UHGV virus genome: UHGV-0063828
Origin: a virus
Reading direction: 5' to 3' (one strand)
Length of the DNA stretch: 37,358 nucleotides
The first letter of the stretch is position 1; every line of letters begins with the position of its first letter. The notes beneath the pieces were generated by a model that was not told the origin of the DNA, did no database searches, and saw only the letters and a list, made by a program, of their open reading frames with translations. Of this stretch, positions 2,926-37,358 are shown piece after piece. The translations under genes were made by a program, and so were the position numbers.

Positions 2926-3108
2926 TTACCACACCTCTGCGGTAATCTTTACTTTAATGTCATACTTCTTTAAGAGTTTGTGGAAGGTTGATTGATCAAT
3001 ACCTTCACCTTTAAACCATTCACCCATCACTACATCAGGTGTCAGTTCAAAATAACGCTTTGCCATTTCTAAAACGATTTCGCGAGTGAACTTAACAGGT
3101 CGTGCCAT
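2926..3108 (-). CDS. Small HTH-type DNA-binding protein (60 aa), candidate regulator
   Basis: Strong AGGAGGA SD before ATG; borders the large repeat-rich non-coding region and is divergent from the rightward early genes. Confidence 0.5.
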   Translation of the reverse strand: MARPVKFTREIVLEMAKRYFELTPDVVMGEWFKGEGIDQSTFHKLLKKYDIKVKITAEVW

Positions 3109-3626
3109 CTCGAATCCTCCTAAATCTGGATTAATGATTTCTTAAAAAAGAGCGTTAACCGCTCACTATTATTTATATGGGGATTGTATTTTATTTTTCA
3201 ACCCCTCACATTTATCTCTTATATATGTATTTATAACAGAGATATGTTAAAATGTTATTCAGATGTTATCAGGCGTGTTAAATGTGTTAAACCACAGCAC
3301 GAATTGCTAAAGCGAAGAACACGATTTAACCAAATTGATGTTTATTCAATCAATTTAGAAAAAGGCATAGCACTTTTTGCTAAAGCGGTGAGCATTAATT
3401 GAGCTATGAATTGTAAAGATTTGTTACAAGATTTTCTCTCAGATCCAAATCTTCACAGACATATAACAATTTAACACGGTGATAACAATAGGAAGGAAAA
3501 TCGGTAAATTTTCACTTTCAATACAAATATTATACCACATTTTTCTCGAATTGTCAAGTATAGCACCAAACCTACATAGTGTCAAGAAAGGACTTTCAAA
3601 CCTACACTAGCCCTACACTATGAAAA

Positions 3627-3866
3627 TTGCCCCTGAATTTTTGCCCCTGAACCAAAATCCCCCTAGATTCCACATCCCATTTTTGCCCCTGAAACCCACT
3701 ATTTTTGCCCCTGAAATTCTGGGGAACAGTGATTTTGCCCCTCATTTTTGCCCCTGAAATGCCAATAATTGCCCCTGAAAATCTCATTTTTGCCCCTGAA
3801 ATTTGCCCCCGAAAAGGATTGGTGAGAAAAACTCTTTATAAAACATTAACTTAGTGAGGGGCAAAA
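3627..3866 (+). repeat. Iteron-like array: 7 perfect and 2 variant direct copies of TTGCCCCTGAA, plus one inverted copy
   Basis: Perfect copies start at 3627, 3641, 3683, 3705, 3748, 3769, 3790; variants at 3735 and 3803; inverted GAGGGGCAAAA at 3856-3866; same motif forms the hairpin at 6324-6345. Confidence 0.85.
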
Positions 3867-4016
3867 GCGAGGGATCGGGCGTGCATAGATATTATATAAC
3901 ACATTCGCTACGCTCATGTGTAAAACCAAAAACAACAAATAACCAAAAAGATATTAGGAGGGCGTAGCCCGACTGCGCGAAGCGCCAACCAATTACTTCT
4001 AGTAACAACTAATTTA

Positions 4017-4230
4017 AACTAGATGATCTTAGAAGGAATTAACTAGTTTGCTCGCTCGCTTCGCTCACTCTCAAACGTCTGCGACGCCACTGCGTGGCAT
4101 CGAGAATCACTTCTGAAAGGATTTTCTTGAAAGGGATTTTAAACTAGTTACTAACTGATTCTAGAAAGATAGTAATAATCACTTTGAAGATAATAGTAGT
4201 TAACTGGTTACTAGATGATTCTAGATCACT
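4017..4230. repeat. Cluster of ACTAG-centred palindromes and direct repeats
   Basis: AACTAGTT at 4041-4048 and 4142-4149; AACTAGATGATCTTAGAA at 4017-4037 vs TTACTAGATGATTCTAGATC at 4208-4229; TCTAGA sites. Confidence 0.7.
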
Positions 4231-4485
4231 TTAATGATCATGAAAGGTATTGGTTATCCCTTCGGGATTGCAACCTTCGGTTGCTAAATTGCTTCCTGAT
4301 TATAATTTCTCCAAAAGAAAGATTCTTATATTCTAAAGATACTTCTTCGTTTTGATGATGATTTAATCAAAATCTATGAAGGAGGCGAAGCCGACTGAAT
4401 CCAATCACTTCCAAATAGATAAAAAATTCTCGTTATAAATACTAGTGTAATTTGTTTGATTCACTTTCTTTTAGAGGATACCACT

Positions 4486-4938
4486 ATGATCAATACTAAA
4501 ACTCCTTTCATTCTTCTGGGTCTGAACCATGATGATAATCTGGCTATGATGCATGTTTTCGCTAATCGTGGTTATAACATCATTCGTCATTCCGAAGACT
4601 CCAATTTCTCAACTGCTTTCTATGCTCTTAAACGTAATGGTCGCCCTACGGTTATCGTAGACTGCTTTACTGATGAAGGTCGTGAACAATACAACAACAT
4701 TCCGGCAATTATTGTTCGTGATGACCTGCCGTTTGATGTTCGTGAATATGACGTTGATTTAGGCTCTTACTACGGGATCGCGGATCTTGACCAGATTATG
4801 GCTGATTATGGTAAACAACCCGCTCAGGAAGCCCCAGAACACGATGAACAAGACGAAGATGACGACGACTACGCACCAATCGCTTTTTCTTCTCACGGTG
4901 GCTTCTACGGTTACGATGAAGGCTTAGATATGCTGTAA
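4486..4938 (+). CDS. Acidic early protein (150 aa), function unknown
   Basis: AGAGGA SD before ATG at 4486 (track start 4456 is a TTG); first gene after the non-coding region; very acidic C-terminal half (EHDEQDEDDDDY). Confidence 0.5.
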   Translation: MINTKTPFILLGLNHDDNLAMMHVFANRGYNIIRHSEDSNFSTAFYALKRNGRPTVIVDCFTDEGREQYNNIPAIIVRDDLPFDVREYDVDLGSYYGIADLDQIMADYGKQPAQEAPEHDEQDEDDDDYAPIAFSSHGGFYGYDEGLDML

Positions 4939-4973
4939 GTTAGGTCAACCCTTTGGCGTTTTGTCAAGGGGTA

Positions 4974-5003
4974 TTGACAAAATTTTATGACTTTTTTATG
5001 ATT
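4974..5003 (+). promoter_or_regulatory. Sigma70-like promoter TTGACA-N18-TATGAT with adjacent palindrome TTGTCAA-N6-TTGACAA (4961-4980)
   Basis: Hexamers read directly; located upstream of the gene at 5059. Confidence 0.45.
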
Positions 5004-30897: not shown

Positions 30898-32388
30898 TTA
30901 TATAGCAATTGTTTTAGTTGCATAGCTGAACTTGTCGGTTAGATAATAGCGGATTCTCTCAAGTGCATGTTTTACCGCATAATTTTTATGCTTGACTTTT
31001 CCGTTACGACCGAATATACACAAATGATCGATAAGATCCCAGACCGTTGCAATGTCTTTCGAACCATGTTTACGCAATGCACGACCGATACTCTGACGAA
31101 CGATAGTTGATTCCTTCACTGGATGACCGAAAATAACATGGTGCAAATTCTTAATTGAAACACCAGTAGAGAACACACCATAAGACGCAACACAAATGAT
31201 CCCGGTGTCACCCTCCGCCATTTTCTTAAATTCATCACGTTCTTCTGTCTTAACTCCACCGTCAATATAATAAACCTTGTCGTGTACCTTCTGTAACGCG
31301 TCATACATAAGTTTTCCGTGCTTAGTATTGCGGAACATCAGGAATACGTTTTCGCCCTTCTTAGCGAGTTTTAGCGCCAAATTACAAGCAAACTTATTTC
31401 GTCGTGGGTTAGATGTAATATACTTGATCTCTTCCGCATATTCTCTCCCCTTAACCGCGCTACATTCCTCATCGGTATAACGAAGGAAAAGACAGTTGAT
31501 TTTCAGTTTCGTCACTTGACCTTCTTCCATCAGGCGGTCAATACTCACGATCTTAGAAATATCACCGAAAAGCCCGACATACTGCATTAAATGGCACTTT
31601 GATTCTTTCGGGGAACCAGTCATACCGATCTTAAACTGGCAATGATTCATTCCGTTAATGATATTGGTAATATTTTTGGCACTAGCCTTATGCGATTCAT
31701 CAACTATCAACATTCCATATTGTCGGAACCATTCAGGAGGCATCTTGCAAGCTGATTGCCAGGTACTAACCGTGATTAACCTGTCTCCCGGATGTTTCCC
31801 GCTACCACTCATCATTGTATGGATTGCTTCATAAGGGAATAACCGATAATCGATGAAATCATCCCTCATTTGAACCACTAGCGATGTAGTCGGGACAATG
31901 ATTAACACCTTTCCGGTGTAATGCTCTAAGTACCAACGAGACAGCATACAAGCAATCAATGACTTTCCGGCACTGGTAGGAAGAACCAGCATTCTACGGC
32001 GATTGTGGATACCCTGAAAGACTGCTTCACGCTGATACCAGTAAGGATTGATTTTATTGGAACCGGAATACACTTCTAAAGAGTCAATCCACGAATCAAT
32101 CTGTTCTTTGGTTACATCTTCCTTCTCAAGTAATCGCGGGTCAATCCAGACTGAATAGCCCATATTTTTAACGAAGACACCCAATGTTTTTAATAGTCCA
32201 ATTGGTAGGGTATTTTCATGCGTAAACAGTCTTATTCGTCCATCCCAGCCGGAATACTTGTAGCGGGGGCTAAACCTAGCCCCTTCAACCTCAAACGAGA
32301 AATAATCTCTTAATTCCATTCCGATAGAAGGAGAGCAATCAACCTTAACGAAACTGTAATCTTGAAAATGAATTTTAATATCTTGCAT
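30898..32388 (-). CDS. SF2 helicase, T4 UvsW-like
   Basis: Walker A LPTSAGKS, DESH box, TGSP, QSIGRALR motifs; N-terminus MQDIKIHFQDYSFVKVDC resembles T4 UvsW as recalled; start placed at ATG 32388 with GGAGTGG SD (track start 32397 is GTG). Confidence 0.65.
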   Translation of the reverse strand: MQDIKIHFQDYSFVKVDCSPSIGMELRDYFSFEVEGARFSPRYKYSGWDGRIRLFTHENTLPIGLLKTLGVFVKNMGYSVWIDPRLLEKEDVTKEQIDSWIDSLEVYSGSNKINPYWYQREAVFQGIHNRRRMLVLPTSAGKSLIACMLSRWYLEHYTGKVLIIVPTTSLVVQMRDDFIDYRLFPYEAIHTMMSGSGKHPGDRLITVSTWQSACKMPPEWFRQYGMLIVDESHKASAKNITNIINGMNHCQFKIGMTGSPKESKCHLMQYVGLFGDISKIVSIDRLMEEGQVTKLKINCLFLRYTDEECSAVKGREYAEEIKYITSNPRRNKFACNLALKLAKKGENVFLMFRNTKHGKLMYDALQKVHDKVYYIDGGVKTEERDEFKKMAEGDTGIICVASYGVFSTGVSIKNLHHVIFGHPVKESTIVRQSIGRALRKHGSKDIATVWDLIDHLCIFGRNGKVKHKNYAVKHALERIRYYLTDKFSYATKTIAI

Positions 32389-32957
32389 TAGTTCCACTCC
32401 ACACTTGCAATATTCTTTATATTGTTTAGTGATTTATTGCAGTAGTGGAATGTTTCAGTTTTACCGTATTCAATCCCGCCTATACCCACATCCAGTAATC
32501 TCTTTATTGCTCTTTCAGTGGCTAAAGCATGTTTCATTGATGGCATTTCACCAGCAAAGACAATATCAAAGTTATGACCGGGATTGCGTACACCCAGATT
32601 AACACGTCGCTTGATGATTGACTTTGTAACACCAAATTTACCAATATCCCCTGATTTCATTACATAGAGATAAGGCACACCCGCTTTATATTGAAAGTAA
32701 TCACTTTTGAGACATGCACAGCGTTTACCTTCATTAAGCAGGTTGGTAGCTGATTTGTCGGCTCTATTGCCGCATCTGGTACATGTAAGAGCAATTCTTG
32801 AATGAAGCCCTTTAAACTCACCCAGAAAGCCATGAAAGACTAATGGTAAGTCCTTCTCTTTGATGTGAGTCAGAATGCGTTGTTCTAATGCCGATGGAGT
32901 TACAGCACGGGAGGATTTAGGAGTAAAAACAATATCTTTAGCCATTACTGGAATCAT
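32388..32957 (-). CDS. Zinc-ribbon plus T5orf172 (GIY-YIG-like) domain protein
   Basis: CTRCGN...CACLK cysteine pairs followed by YLYVMKSGDIGKFGVTK...ERAIKR...GKTETFHY; stop overlaps the helicase ATG (TAATG). Confidence 0.55.
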   Translation of the reverse strand: MIPVMAKDIVFTPKSSRAVTPSALEQRILTHIKEKDLPLVFHGFLGEFKGLHSRIALTCTRCGNRADKSATNLLNEGKRCACLKSDYFQYKAGVPYLYVMKSGDIGKFGVTKSIIKRRVNLGVRNPGHNFDIVFAGEMPSMKHALATERAIKRLLDVGIGGIEYGKTETFHYCNKSLNNIKNIASVEWN

Positions 32958-33110
32958 ATAGACCTCACTTTTTAACTTATAGGCATAACCTCAATATGGT
33001 TGGTTTGGGATTTAGGGTCGCGTATTATACACATCCAGATAGAGAATGCAATAGTAAGACAATTTTCTCTAATAAATAGTAGTGAGCTTATTATTTTAGA
33101 GGAAACTACT

Positions 33111-34286
33111 ATGAAACTTGCTTACGCTGCCGAAATTCCTTTTGTTAAGAAAACTCGCGGTTTATCGCCGGAAGAGTACCAACAACGAATCATCGCTAAA
33201 CTGGAACCTGCTTTCGTATTTGGTGGATTTATCCTACCGTGGAAGGGTAATCACACTTACTTTCGAATCTACAATTTAGATACACAAGAATATAAGGACT
33301 ACAAATTACGCAAACTGGAAGATACTAACGGGGGTGAGTTATTCCAGACTGAAAAGGCTGTATGGTTGAAAATGGAATCTCGTTGTAATGAGAAGGGAAA
33401 GAAATTCCTCGGATGGCAAGGAGAATGGAAAGGGCGAAATAGAACGAAAGCCCGTGTTTTGTGCCCTGAACACAATCAAATCATGACGCCATCTCTATTA
33501 CATGCTCTTAAAGATGATTTCGATTTTGATTGCAAAATCTGTATGGCTGAAAAATCCCAACGGGTAAGAAGTGGCAAGACTTTTGATGAAGTTATTAAGG
33601 ACAAAGAGACAATCATCAATGCACGTTGCGAGACTACACCTTACATCTTCAAAGGATTCATCATAAACACCCCACACCTAAAGGATGTTAAATTTAAAAC
33701 CTATTGCAAGACACATAACCACGAATGGGAATCTCATTTAAGATGTGCTGATTCTTTCACTTGTCCGCTTTGCATTAAAGACCAACTGGTGCAACTGTCT
33801 AACCGGACTTATCAGGGTAAGGCTAGTTTCTACATTCAATTATTAGATGACAAATTTATTAAATTTGGAATCACTACCCGGAAACCAGAAGAACGAATGA
33901 GAGAGCAAACCAGAAAGAGCAACTTCACTCACCGCTTAATCTTTACTCATGAGTTTGAGGATGGTTGGAAAGCCGTTGATTTAGAGCATGAAGTAAAACA
34001 ACGCTTCAAGACTCATGCAGCACCCTACAAAGATTTCAAGGATGGATGGTCGGAAACTCTGACTATTGATGAGTTACCACACTTACAGCAACTGGTTTAT
34101 GACTACCTAACCAATCAACCGGACGAGGCTAATATGTGGGTATCTCCGAAAGATGTATTTGATGACGATACATTCAAGCTACATACTCACTTCTACGGCA
34201 TCAATAAACCGGAATTTTTCTGTATTGATGACGACAGTCCTGATTTAATGGATGAATACTTTAATACTCTCTTAGAGGCTCTCTAA
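33111..34286 (+). CDS. Zinc-finger plus T5orf172 (GIY-YIG-like) domain protein
   Basis: Start placed at ATG 33111 with AGAGGA SD; Cys/His clusters (CPEHN...CKIC; CKTHNH...CPLC) then FYIQLLDDKFIKFGITTRKPEERMRE...GWSETL. Confidence 0.55.
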   Translation: MKLAYAAEIPFVKKTRGLSPEEYQQRIIAKLEPAFVFGGFILPWKGNHTYFRIYNLDTQEYKDYKLRKLEDTNGGELFQTEKAVWLKMESRCNEKGKKFLGWQGEWKGRNRTKARVLCPEHNQIMTPSLLHALKDDFDFDCKICMAEKSQRVRSGKTFDEVIKDKETIINARCETTPYIFKGFIINTPHLKDVKFKTYCKTHNHEWESHLRCADSFTCPLCIKDQLVQLSNRTYQGKASFYIQLLDDKFIKFGITTRKPEERMREQTRKSNFTHRLIFTHEFEDGWKAVDLEHEVKQRFKTHAAPYKDFKDGWSETLTIDELPHLQQLVYDYLTNQPDEANMWVSPKDVFDDDTFKLHTHFYGINKPEFFCIDDDSPDLMDEYFNTLLEAL

Positions 34287-34298
34287 CGCAATTAAATT

Positions 34299-34326
34299 AA
34301 AAAGGGGTACGAATGTACCCCTTAAC
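34299..34326. terminator. Bidirectional terminator-like hairpin between T5orf172 gene and integrase gene
   Basis: AAGGGGTAC-GAAT-GTACCCCTT perfect 9 bp stem, A-run upstream, T-containing tract downstream. Confidence 0.5.
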
Positions 34327-34359: not shown

Positions 34360-36039
34360 TTAAATTCCAAATTCCTGTAATGGACCTGGTATTTCCTCTT
34401 CTGGTTTCCAGTTCTTATCTGTCAGCATGTCTAAACATGGATGCAAAACAAGCCCGTTACTTTCCAGAATCTGCCTATCATTGATAGTTTTCAAATCAAT
34501 GAATATCCGGCCTTTCCTCGTTCCTCTTGAATTTTCTATTACAACTCTCTGGGTTTTTCCATCGATGTATTCCAGTACAAACAAGTTTTTGTTTCTGTCA
34601 ATCCTGCTACACCCGATCCGCTTTAGAGCTTGCTTAATCTTAAACCGGACCTTTAGTCGTTCCTCGTTGTAAACATCTTCTAAATCAAATTCTGCGAGCT
34701 TCTCCCAGCCTTGAGAGTCAACAGAATACATTTCCTCTTCTGCCATCTTGATCTGATTGTAGAGTGTTTCACGCTCGCTATTGAGGGTAGTAATCTGATC
34801 GGCTAGTTCCTTCGTTGCTCCTGTCATAGCAGAAAGGGCAATCAGGTTATCAATCTTGCGTGATATCTCATCAACCTGTACTTTCAACGCCGGAACCGGA
34901 TTAGCCTTATCCTCAGCAATCCAGATTTTATCAGCCAGCAATTGCAATACAGCTTTCTCTAATTGATCACCTCGAAAACTCCAGTTTGGATGCTCGCAAT
35001 CAAGTCTACGTGAACGGGTCGCATCACATGTATAACGATACTGGTCAGAACGTTTGTTCGTTCCCTTCACTTTAACCATAGCGCAACCGCAATGATCACA
35101 TTTCAATAGGCCAATACCACTAAGCAGGGGGATCGGTTTAACTTCTTCCTTGTCTCCAAAGTTCCATGCTCTAGCACCAATATTTTTCTTAAGGTGATAG
35201 AACGTAGCATCATCAATAACACGAGGGTAATAATCCTTTAACTCATAGTTAACGCCATCTACAGAGACCTCCTTGATACCAATCAAAGCGCGGGTATGAA
35301 ACAACCTTTCAACCATTGCCCGTGACCATTTTGAATGCTTCTTATTACTAACCGCTGGTGGTGGTGCATATGTCTCGTTAAGGTGATCCAGTATTTCGGC
35401 GGTTGAACGTCCATTCTTCCGTAATTCCACAATCTCCTGAACAACAGGGAAGAAGACCGGATGAGGCAACACATAACCGGAAGTGGTATCAGTCCACCAC
35501 ATATTCTTTCCAACTTCCTCGATTGCCACTGCCGGATTCTGGGGATTTTCTTGATGGGCTTTAATCTTAATCAGTGCGCTTGAGTTAGTACGATTGCGCT
35601 TAGTCTGGCTTTCCTCATTACCACGGATGAATAAAAGGATGGAGAACATCAGGTCCATCGGATTAGCGGTAACAGTATCCAGCGAGTAGATCTTGTTATC
35701 CATGCCAGTAACAATGGTTATCCCCCTACGGATTATTGAAAGGAATAACTCCTGCGCACTGACAATATCGGCACGGGATAAACGGTCCAAGTTTTCAATG
35801 AATAGCCAGCTACCAACAGGAACGGATCTACCAATTGCATCAAGGAAACGAGATAGCGCCCCTGTTTTAGAGTTAGCACCTTTAAACGCAGATACACCCA
35901 GATCCTGATAATCATTTACCAGTTCTAAGTCATACTTTGCCGCAATCTCTCTCGCCATCCTGATTTGTCGTTCATAACTCGAACCATCACTCTGACGCAT
36001 AGACGAGAAGCGAATATACGAATACAGTTTAGTTTTCAT
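34360..36039 (-). CDS. Large serine recombinase (integrase)
   Basis: N-terminal resolvase-type catalytic domain (YSYIRFSSMRQ, ENLDRLSR); cysteine-rich zinc ribbon (CDHCGC...YTCDA...CEH); C-terminal coiled coil; ~559 aa from ATG at 36039. Confidence 0.85.
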   Translation of the reverse strand: MKTKLYSYIRFSSMRQSDGSSYERQIRMAREIAAKYDLELVNDYQDLGVSAFKGANSKTGALSRFLDAIGRSVPVGSWLFIENLDRLSRADIVSAQELFLSIIRRGITIVTGMDNKIYSLDTVTANPMDLMFSILLFIRGNEESQTKRNRTNSSALIKIKAHQENPQNPAVAIEEVGKNMWWTDTTSGYVLPHPVFFPVVQEIVELRKNGRSTAEILDHLNETYAPPPAVSNKKHSKWSRAMVERLFHTRALIGIKEVSVDGVNYELKDYYPRVIDDATFYHLKKNIGARAWNFGDKEEVKPIPLLSGIGLLKCDHCGCAMVKVKGTNKRSDQYRYTCDATRSRRLDCEHPNWSFRGDQLEKAVLQLLADKIWIAEDKANPVPALKVQVDEISRKIDNLIALSAMTGATKELADQITTLNSERETLYNQIKMAEEEMYSVDSQGWEKLAEFDLEDVYNEERLKVRFKIKQALKRIGCSRIDRNKNLFVLEYIDGKTQRVVIENSRGTRKGRIFIDLKTINDRQILESNGLVLHPCLDMLTDKNWKPEEEIPGPLQEFGI

Positions 36040-36051
36040 ACCATTTCCAAA

Positions 36052-36088
36052 CAAAAACGCCCCTACCGTGTATTATAACGATAGGGGC
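36052..36088 (-). terminator. Minus-strand terminator between secreted-protein gene and integrase start; loop contains TATAAT
   Basis: On minus strand GCCCCTA...TAGGGGC stem followed by GTTTTTGTTT; candidate integrase promoter overlaps. Confidence 0.45.
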
Positions 36089-36104
36089 ATTGGTTAGTAA
36101 GTCA

Positions 36105-36350
36105 TTAATATTTCTTTCCAGTTAGTTTTGCATCACGTTTATTAATATCCTCGATATGACTCCATACACACGCAGTAATAAAGTCGTCATCGTCACCAAC
36201 TCCGGCAATCTGTGCTAATTCAGTACACAGTTGATTTAAAGAAGGTGCAACGGCAGCACGCTTGACACTATCACCCTGTACATATTGATCCGCATTAGCA
36301 GCACCCACCAAACCCAGAGCAAGAACAACACCAGCGATAATCTTTTTCAT
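36105..36350 (-). CDS. Small secreted protein (81 aa) with signal peptide
   Basis: AAGAGGAAA SD; N-terminal MKKIIAGVVLALGLVGAANA signal-like sequence; DDDD motif and two Cys in mature part. Confidence 0.55.
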   Translation of the reverse strand: MKKIIAGVVLALGLVGAANADQYVQGDSVKRAAVAPSLNQLCTELAQIAGVGDDDDFITACVWSHIEDINKRDAKLTGKKY

Positions 36351-36395
36351 AGTAGAATTTCCTCTTGTTATTTGAATTACGATATATTTATATCG

Positions 36396-36521
36396 TTAAA
36401 AATTGATGCTAATTACCAGACCAAACACAACCGCACCAATCAAATCAATCCAGTTAATACACAATCCGCTATATTCTTTCTTGAATGTCTTAGATGAAAT
36501 GCCATCATGAAATTGTTTCAT
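36396..36521 (-). CDS. Small membrane peptide (41 aa)
   Basis: Manual translation MKQFHDGISSKTFKKEYSGLCINWIDLIGAVVFGLVISINF; GGGG-rich SD overlapping upstream peptide stop; C-terminal TM helix. Confidence 0.35.
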   Translation of the reverse strand: MKQFHDGISSKTFKKEYSGLCINWIDLIGAVVFGLVISINF

Positions 36522-36524
36522 TGC

Positions 36525-36605
36525 TCACCCCATACTAACGACAATATAAGAAAGGCTGATCATAGTTGTGAGACTACCTCCCACGAATGAGATAAAAGCT
36601 AACAT
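36525..36605 (-). CDS. Small hydrophobic peptide (26 aa)
   Basis: Manual translation MLAFISFVGGSLTTMISLSYIVVSMG; GGAGAA SD 6 nt before ATG; directly after a hairpin terminator. Confidence 0.3.
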   Translation of the reverse strand: MLAFISFVGGSLTTMISLSYIVVSMG

Positions 36606-36620
36606 GTTTGATTCTCCATT

Positions 36621-36647
36621 TAAAAAGCGGTGGGAATTGCACCCACC
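36621..36647 (-). terminator. Minus-strand terminator/attenuator hairpin preceding the small-peptide ORFs
   Basis: On minus strand GGTGGGTGCAATTCCCACC followed by GCTTTTTAAA, then the SD of the 26 aa ORF. Confidence 0.5.
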
Positions 36648-36657
36648 AAATTAGAAA

Positions 36658-36927
36658 TTACTTCTTGCTAATAAACTCTTTGTAGATAAAATCTAAGACT
36701 TCCTTTAACTTCTTATCGGTGTCAATCATCACCGGAAGTTCTTCTTTAATATCGCGAGGAAGATACACATTACCTTTCCAGAACAAGCAACCACATTGAG
36801 CAATCGAATAGCTGAACATCCATTCACAATCTTGTTCTATCTCCCAGAATCTAACCTGCTCATCTTCGAGTTGAAGTTCGATTCCACGGCGGCGAGCATA
36901 GTTATGGATTGCTTTGGTAATGTTCAT
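36658..36927 (-). CDS. Hypothetical protein (89 aa) abutting attR
   Basis: GAGAGGATA SD; start lies ~30 bp from the host junction, so its promoter must lie in host DNA in the integrated state. Confidence 0.5.
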
Positions 36928-36939
36928 CGTTGTATCCTC

Positions 36940-36975
36940 TCGTGTTATTGTGGGTACATGATATTAGGGAATCCC
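36940..36975. other. Approximate prophage-host junction (attR) inside ycdX
   Basis: Phage gene SD at 36928-36936; YcdX-like coding sequence recognisable from ~36966 (GGGAATCCCAAATATGAAAT); exact crossover cannot be set without the uninterrupted host allele. Confidence 0.55.
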
Positions 36976-37308
36976 AAATATGAAATAGATGTGAAAGCCG
37001 TTGCTGAAGCAGCCGCGAAACATCAGGTGGCGCTGGAAATCAATAATTCTTCATTTTTACACTCACGTAAGGGCAGTGAAGACAACTGTCGTGCGGTAGC
37101 CGCAGCGGTACGTGATGCTGGAGGTTGGGTGGCATTAGGCTCGGATTCTCACACCGCGTTTACCATGGGGGAATTTGAAGAGTGTCTTAAAATCCTCGAC
37201 GCGGTAGATTTTCCGCCAGAGCGCATTTTGAATGTTTCGCCGCGCCGCTTACTGAACTTCCTTGAATCTCGCGGTATGGCACCGATTGCGGAATTTGCAG
37301 ACCTTTAA
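36961..37308 (+). pseudogene. ycdX: 3' remnant of host PHP-family phosphoesterase gene ycdX, truncated by prophage insertion
   Basis: Translation [32 protein letters not shown]...PIAEFADL matches the YcdX C-terminus as recalled; the upstream part of the track ORF (36796-36960) is phage-derived read-in. Confidence 0.7.
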
Positions 37309-37331
37309 TTACTAGTAATGGAAATATATTA

Positions 37332-37358
37332 ATGAACGAGTTTTCTATCCTCTGTCGT
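37332..37358 (+). CDS. ycdY: 5' end of host ycdY-like gene (partial, continues beyond window)
   Basis: ATG followed by NEFSILCR, matching the remembered YcdY N-terminus; located just after the ycdX stop. Confidence 0.5.

Follow-up and report, generated by a model that had tools for sequence, protein, structure and literature searches.

A complete-looking temperate phage in the ycdX coding sequence of Escherichia coli: its large serine recombinase, sister prophages in hicB and codB, and a candidate promoter split by integration

The DNA considered here, UHGV virus genome UHGV-0063828, is a single stretch of 37,358 nucleotides (hereafter the window) that carries a prophage and, at its right end, the Escherichia coli DNA into which the prophage is inserted. 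With high confidence, a complete-looking temperate phage of ~37 kb sits in the coding sequence of ycdX and was put there by its own large serine recombinase (LSR). The event is of the kind known for SprA of SPbeta at spsM and for the Listeria comK prophages, at a site that was uncharacterised before, and the finding adds one intragenic attachment site for phage serine integrases. Relatives of the phage occupy two other genes, hicB and codB, and the phage attachment site, once reconstructed, contains a promoter-like sequence that is divided between the two prophage ends.

The junction in ycdX and the integrase

Window positions 36972-37358 are E. coli ycdX from codon 134 to its stop followed by the start of ycdY, and everything leftward is prophage. 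A megablast query consisting of window 36400-37358 was compared with 5426 complete E. coli genomes, and 5411 of them have a counterpart of 36967-37358, at 97-100% identity, in the 3' part of ycdX and the beginning of ycdY. Except in 27 genomes, the match begins at query positions 568-571 (window 36967-36970) and is annotated as ycdX (zinc-binding phosphatase) and then ycdY; the 27 match on the phage side too, over the full query, and thus share the same phage-host junction. The empty-site genome NZ_CP074895.1 has the gene order ghrA, ycdX (738 nt), ycdY, ycdZ, csgG, with ycdX at 2105-2842 of the extracted locus (L002) and the match starting at 2501. Alignment to uninterrupted alleles therefore places the junction within the gene, where a first-pass annotation made from the letters alone had put it. 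The C-terminal fragment, which that annotation estimated at ~115 aa, is present and by genome comparison comprises 112 codons (36970-37308, + strand; codons 134-245 and the stop) of a PHP-family zinc phosphatase. The YcdY-like start noted after it is that of ycdY itself (37333-37358, + strand, ATG at 37333), now parted from the ycdX promoter region by the prophage.

Base-by-base comparison of empty ycdX with both junctions defines the crossover. The bacterial site attB reads ...AGCCATCCCGGA[AA]TCCCAAATATGAAATAG..., and attL, taken from a near-identical lysogen, follows it through the AA (...AGCCATCCCGGA[AA]CCCGAACGTAGTCAACCCCC...), while attR follows it from the AA onward (...GTACATGATATTAGGG[AA]TCCCAAATATG...). 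The phage site attP reconstructed from the two junctions is ...GTGGGTACATGATATTAGGG[AA]CCCGAACGTAGTCAACCCCC..., or at greater length GGGTTGACTACGTTCGGGTTCCCTAATATCATG. In the window attR occupies 36945-36995, with the phage P arm to 36969, the AA at 36970-36971 and the host B' arm from 36972, and the same register is seen in a hicB-type sister and in Salmonella attR sites. The AA corresponds to ycdX nucleotides 400-401, the first two bases of codon 134, and attB spans the codons for H131-P-G-N-P-K-Y of the PHP phosphatase YcdX, including the conserved motif H-P-G-N-P, whose His131 we take to be a zinc ligand. At ycdX the overlap between attP and attB is exactly these 2 bp, there is no target duplication, and the junctions are conservative. 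Serine integrases cut with a 2-bp stagger and rejoin conservatively, so a clean 2-bp overlap without duplication is the product expected of such an enzyme; together with the domains described below, it bears out the earlier assignment of the insertion to an LSR. The base to the left of the AA in attR differs among phages (G, C or T), as expected for a crossover at the AA. Read by eye, the arms of both sites are imperfect inverted repeats around the crossover (GGA[AA]TCC in attB, GGG[AA]CCC in attP), and in attP the P arm agrees with the complemented P' arm at 11 of 18 symmetric positions.

The left attachment site lies outside the window, position 1 being 38 nt inside the phage from the crossover; the left end instead begins with a terminator hairpin (1-33, - strand; A-run, GC stem and T-run read) belonging to a 101-aa gene (50-355, - strand). 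The attL sequence was taken from near-identical lysogens, the first 55 nt of the window being identical to loci that run on into attL in ycdX. The proxy was strain CUVET21-37, whose prophage is 98% identical over the integrase end. There the 5' part of ycdX adjoins ghrA and lies ~35.7 kb from the 3' part, with a full phage gene set between them, in the order ghrA, ycdX', prophage, 'ycdX, ycdY, ycdZ, csgG. For the source genome of the window, attL is predicted to read ...CATCCCGGA[AA]CCCGAACGTAGTC. The frame at attL runs through ycdX codons 1-135 and then NVVNPQ to a stop (N-P-N-V-V-N-P-Q, stop). The ycdX fragment at attR has a phage ATG (36958) in frame ahead of it, with no evident ribosome-binding site or promoter there.

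In the mechanism we propose, the integrase paired the phage attP with the ycdX attB, made staggered cuts at the central AA and rejoined the ends conservatively, giving clean hybrid junctions. The gene is thereby divided into a 5' fragment, at attL, and a 3' fragment without a promoter, at attR, and should be inactive; precise excision would restore it. Some variation occurs at the site. The lysogen GCA_030927665.1 (L019) has CATCCGGGG[AA] instead of CATCCCGGA[AA] as its attL host arm, and the integrase therefore tolerates synonymous attB changes at -1 and -4. Three attR loci (L060, L062, L063) have CCG for CCC at +4.

The integrase gene (34360-36039, - strand) encodes 559 aa from the ATG at 36039, the start supported by the RefSeq start in CUVET21-37; the mechanical open reading frame (ORF) from the TTG at 36054 gives 564 aa. 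Pfam reports PF07508 (Recombinase) at residues 203-292 and PF13408 (Zn_ribbon_recom) at 315-373, both above gathering scores, and the zinc-ribbon cysteines (CxxC...C...C) are visible in an alignment of integrases, followed by what appears to be a long helical segment. The protein belongs to phrog_95 (integrase) over residues 2-484, with the DNA invertase family phrog_125 matching residues 2-256. Residues 1-114 align to the solved resolvase-family catalytic domain 3GUV (E 0.0013), and Ser12, in an R-x-S motif, is the predicted catalytic nucleophile. PF00239 (Resolvase), PF07508 and PF13408 are all on record for the 99%-identical cluster representative P0001 (975 member sequences); PF00239 was not reported by Pfam at E<0.01 for the window integrase itself. 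By every sequence-level criterion the protein is a large serine recombinase, and it is the sole recombinase annotated in the CUVET21-37 prophage. The enzyme is presumably active today.

The insertion is recurrent. Of the 5426 complete E. coli genomes, 59 have an integrase region related to that of the window, at 83-99% nucleotide identity. Nine contigs encode exactly the window integrase, and all four distinct places listed adjoin ycdY, ycdZ and csgG. An attL in ycdX is found in CUVET21-37, in six other isolate genomes (seven in all) and in two metagenome contigs. Prophages of Salmonella enterica whose integrases are 71-77% identical adjoin the same genes and have the same crossover position (GGATT|CCCTAATA, minus strand), their B' arm diverging beyond the codons for N-P-K-Y; in one further Salmonella contig (L065) the integrase is of the ycdX type known from E. 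coli, again with its crossover at this site. The target thus proves to be a protein-constrained sequence, stable from genus to genus, and the insertion explains why a working ycdX is absent from ~0.5% of E. coli strains and from some Salmonella. A scan of species-representative genomes found nothing beyond a 512-bp contig (L026, JANCAF010000145.1) in an Actinacidiphila cocklensis assembly, 99% identical to the middle of the integrase and almost certainly a contamination.

Sister prophages and the choice of target

Prophages of the same family are inserted in two unrelated genes. The hicB attL, in an antitoxin gene, was found in 35 complete E. coli genomes (L006-L010, L014, L015); the antitoxin loses its C-terminal quarter by this insertion, while hicA remains upstream. 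Other members sit in codB, the cytosine permease gene, in E. coli and E. fergusonii (L012, L013, L031, L032). The genome GCA_031118945.1 (contig JAVHZS010000001.1; L020, L021) is a double lysogen, with copies in both ycdX and hicB that have an identical 101-aa end gene. The hicB attB, ...GAATTGGC[AA]ACCTAAACAGGAG..., overlaps attP by 5 bp (GGCAA) and contains the same AA in the same register. Although only about half of the positions agree between the ycdX and hicB attB sites, the attP of a hicB phage (strain FDAARGOS_946) differs from the ycdX attP at only ~4 of 52 central positions.

The enzymes that recognise these sites are 92.5-93% identical between the ycdX and hicB types, and their fixed differences are unevenly placed: 27 of 32 fall in residues 199-351 and none in residues 1-198. 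The catalytic domain has two alleles, which do not track the target. By contrast, when sequenced loci and 75 database relatives were classified by region, the type of residues 199-352 (recombinase domain and zinc ribbon) predicted the target in ~20 of the ~20 loci with checked context. The Salmonella ycdX enzymes, compared with the window integrase, are 91% identical N-terminally and 58% identical in residues 199-352. In large serine recombinases the domains that make up residues 199-352 contact the arms of the att sites. It can be inferred from the correlation that this segment determines the target gene. The 93%-identical integrases, with distinct attB and nearly the same attP, yield a short list of candidate specificity residues, in an enzyme class that is widely used in genome engineering.

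Two further features of the hicB-type prophages may be recorded. Two P' arms occur among them, ...CCCGAATGTAGTCAACCC and ...(A)CCTAAATGTTGTAAACCCC (L017, L021, L022 and L025 compared with L010), the latter being similar to the host B' arm for ~12 bp. Among hicB attL loci the run of A residues at the crossover varies in length by one, perhaps as a genuine variant, perhaps through a sequencing error in a homopolymer.

A candidate promoter across attP

The gene adjoining attR encodes an 89-aa protein assigned to phrog_6147 (36658-36927, - strand, ATG at 36927). Its ATG lies 42 bp from the crossover, somewhat farther than the ~30 bp first estimated and still close to the phage end. When the phage arms of attL and attR are joined they read ...GGGGG TTGACT ACGTTCGGGTTCCCTAA TATCAT GTACCC..., and this reconstructed attP matches the sigma-70 consensus at 10 of 12 positions, its two hexamers 17 nt apart and its end 30 nt upstream of the start codon of the 89-aa gene. 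Neither attR nor attL alone has a site of at least 9/12 here. The -10 element, TATCAT, is at 36958-36963 (- strand) and its partner, the -35 TTGACT, belongs to the attL side and is not part of the window. There is about an even chance that attP carries a sigma-70 promoter, with its -35 in the P' arm and its -10 in the P arm, which integration would split, silencing the 89-aa gene. The host DNA at attR supplies no recognisable -35 for it. The first-pass annotation had the gene left to be transcribed from host-derived upstream sequence; the DNA upstream of about -30 is indeed host, but it offers no recognisable host -35, and what integration appears to do instead is to divide a phage promoter.

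The strongest competing explanation, whose prospects fall just short of even, is that TTGACT-17-TATCAT is a by-product of the sequence the integrase recognises, the 89-aa gene being expressed alike in the prophage and in the circular phage. Several features argue against it. The minus-strand order in the circular phage would be the 101-aa gene, its terminator (33-1), attP, the 89-aa gene, a terminator (36648-36628), small genes, a hairpin (36091-36056), the integrase gene and a terminator; a terminator thus precedes attP, with only ~75 bp from it to the ATG, and the 89-aa gene therefore needs a promoter there. Among the E. coli lineages, those at ycdX, hicB and codB have TATCAT as the -10; hicB-type phages without the 89-aa gene, in which a 128-aa gene stands behind the same 5' untranslated region, have TATAAT, and 4 of the 6 Salmonella attR loci examined have TATTAT, so that in all of these it varies only within TATNAT. 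As for the -35, TTGACT is replaced by TTTACA in a divergent P' arm, and the 17-nt spacing is kept in both arm sequences. Sites of such quality are also rare: by the same criteria, only 8 as good occur in the whole window on both strands (~75 kb of strand).

A broader and more tentative proposal, on balance rather doubtful, joins this candidate promoter to the retargeting described above. The lineage would carry an exchangeable DNA-binding cassette (residues 199-352) that redirects integration among conserved coding motifs in ycdX, hicB and codB while the catalytic domain, C-terminus and attP stay nearly constant, and attP would double as a split promoter that switches off an early gene on integration. 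If true, nature would here have provided a minimal retargeting series for serine integrases, together with a built-in sensor of the integration state, and the attP promoter would offer the phage a simple physical means of confining the expression of a gene to the unintegrated genome.

Several observations weigh against the main reading, the split promoter included. The promoter-like hexamers both lie within the ~25-bp arms of attP, imperfect inverted repeats bound by the LSR, and their conservation could serve recombination and not transcription, as the by-product explanation would have it. The same explanation gains from the other 2 of the 6 Salmonella attR loci, which represent one integrase and lineage and have a poor -10 (TACTCT) at the promoter position. 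The attL of the window's own genome is known only via near-identical lysogens. No intact attP, excised phage or free phage genome was found in IMG/VR, the JGI metagenomes, the complete E. coli genomes or the GenBank phage collection (exact and degenerate attP patterns in IMG/VR and the JGI metagenomes, and a 338-bp reconstructed attP against the complete E. coli genomes), a search with the P'-arm pattern returning attL forms and chance matches only; attP and current activity are reconstructions for that reason. Against a living phage, finally, no recognisable repressor or replication genes were present among the left-arm ORFs tested.

Signals completed by the joining of element ends are familiar from other mobile DNA. 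In circular transposition intermediates (IS911, IS30, Tn916), junction promoters arise when the joined ends complete an expression signal that is absent from the integrated form, and other integration-dependent controls include lambda sib and the integration-dependent immunity of mycobacteriophages. Those systems involve transposases or tyrosine integrases and control a recombinase or a repressor, whereas the predicted promoter in the ycdX phage would control the 89-aa gene, its integrase being insulated by two terminators. A role for the attP promoter in driving the integrase is rejected on account of the two terminator-like hairpins in between.

The family of the 89-aa protein is small, with 12 clusters from Escherichia and Salmonella and no annotated function. 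The protein has no Pfam or NCBIfam match, its sole match being phrog_6147, of unknown function. Its structure model is confident (pLDDT 93) and has an alpha-beta4-alpha arrangement, with no fold match in the PDB below E 0.1. That it might be a directionality factor is unlikely, since the predicted promoter would exist only after excision. Distant homologues (44-48% identity) on two contigs (L058, L059) are the first gene of long small-gene arrays, after a gap of 0.7-0.9 kb; these contigs look like lytic phages, with DUF7170, DUF7174, DUF7274 and PNKP-like genes nearby. Such a position would fit an early function for the 89-aa protein; it proves nothing.

Phage activity, host consequences and precedents

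Between attL and attR lies a full set of genes for packaging, head, tail and lysis, comprising the large terminase, portal, major capsid, tail tube, tail tip, tail fibre and an M15 peptidase (endolysin). The element could be imagined as a fixed defective remnant whose junction is a vertically inherited scar and whose integrase no longer works, a notion to which the failed searches for attP and free phage and the lack of recognisable repressor or replication genes lend something. It is nonetheless improbable: the strains that share the junction are unrelated (they come from cats, pigs, veal and humans) and their prophages have identities of 83-99%, the same backbone with an identical 101-aa end gene is found at ycdX in some genomes, at hicB in others and at both in one, all large structural ORFs are intact, and most copies have an integrase ORF of full length. 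The intact structural genes, the many diverged copies, spread over three sites, and one double lysogen speak for a living phage. The integrase end has no DNA match in the GenBank phage collection and the structural genes have only a 194-bp match there; the phage lineage is one without a cultured relative.

For the host, the split at residue 134 should abolish the activity of this PHP-barrel protein. The ycdY start lies 24 nt past the ycdX stop, and no sigma-70 consensus site of at least 9/12 is found on the + strand between the junction and ycdY; because of this, ycdY and ycdZ, cut off from the upstream promoter, probably lose most of their transcription (a polar effect). Both ycdX and ycdY have been linked to swarming, and a ycdY mutation is reported to reduce it (quoted in PMC7046640).

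This link, together with the exact restoration of ycdX that conservative serine-integrase chemistry would allow on excision from within the gene, and with the characterised precedents of the Listeria comK prophage and SPbeta in spsM (PMC7397523, PMC5499854), invites the idea of a regulated switch, or active lysogeny, in which conditional excision would restore ycdX and the ycdXYZ transcript, not necessarily killing the host. We regard this too as unlikely. There is no evidence of excision and no directionality factor was identified; the insertion is present in only a small minority of E. coli genomes and the sister phages use unrelated genes, so the choice of a conserved sequence fits better than a regulatory partnership with ycdX. 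The least credible alternative is that the ycdX fragment is a duplicated piece beside the prophage, an intact ycdX existing elsewhere in the genome: in CUVET21-37 the 3' part is present once only, and the 5' part is at the other prophage end by ghrA, in normal chromosomal order.

Among the closest characterised parallels is SPbeta of Bacillus subtilis: its large serine recombinase SprA puts a complete prophage in the protein-coding gene spsM, and excision rebuilds the frame (PMC5499854). The ycdX prophage is alike in having an LSR, an intragenic site and clean hybrid junctions; it differs in lacking an identified counterpart of the SPbeta directionality factor (SprB) and of its developmental excision programme, and in its host phylum, the target here being a phosphatase gene in an enterobacterium; a sequence relationship between the two was neither looked for nor found. 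The Listeria comK prophages (A118 / phi10403S) likewise combine a serine integrase with an intragenic attB, in what is termed 'active lysogeny' (PMC7397523). As with them, the host gene is inactivated while the ycdX prophage is in place, but regulated non-lytic excision, demonstrated for the comK prophages, is a low-probability possibility here. Among sequenced phages, the closest integrases are the YbcK-like LSR of E. coli lambdoid phages (such as Escherichia phage 4A7 and Perceval) and those of Burkholderia phages Bcep176, Bcep22 and JC1, which have the same domain order, yet the window integrase is only 28-31% identical to them and the phage backbones are unrelated.

The first-pass annotation did not know ycdX as a described att site, and the searchable literature offers a single table line, in a 2013 Cronobacter pan-genome paper, that lists a Cronobacter sakazakii prophage at ycdX (PMC3680222). 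The entry names the same host gene in another enterobacterial genus, without integrase type, junction position or phage relationship. Beyond it, a literature search found no paper characterising ycdX, hicB or codB as a serine-integrase att site.

Several smaller features complete the right end of the prophage. A bidirectional terminator-like hairpin (34302-34323) lies downstream of the integrase gene, and a strong one with TATAAT in its loop (36056-36091, - strand) just upstream of the integrase start probably insulates the gene from upstream transcription. Another (36628-36648, - strand) lies directly 3' of the 89-aa gene, which for that reason looks monocistronic. Between the integrase gene and attR an accessory gene (36105-36350, - strand) encodes an 81-aa protein with an N-terminal signal-peptide-like segment and no family match, replaced in some relatives by a protein of 137-139 aa; the gene content of this interval varies among relatives. 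Two tiny hydrophobic ORFs, of 41 aa (36396-36521) and, by eye, ~26 aa (36525-36605), lie between the terminator of the 89-aa gene and the 81-aa gene (36396-36605).

Farther left, window ~3100-5000 is largely non-coding and contains the best sigma-70 matches of the whole window, 12/12 at 3557 (-), 11/12 at 3585 (-) and 11/12 at 4974 (+). The region is possibly a phage regulatory switch; the ORFs next to it match no family. Window 30898-34286, which separates the endolysin from the integrase, encodes a UvsW-like helicase (499 aa), a 189-aa CapR-domain protein and a 428-aa protein combining CapR with a GIY-YIG/T5orf172-type nuclease. This module is absent from the otherwise 94-98%-identical CUVET21-37 prophage and is found beside the integrase gene in Salmonella and E. 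fergusonii relatives; its role may be in replication or defence.

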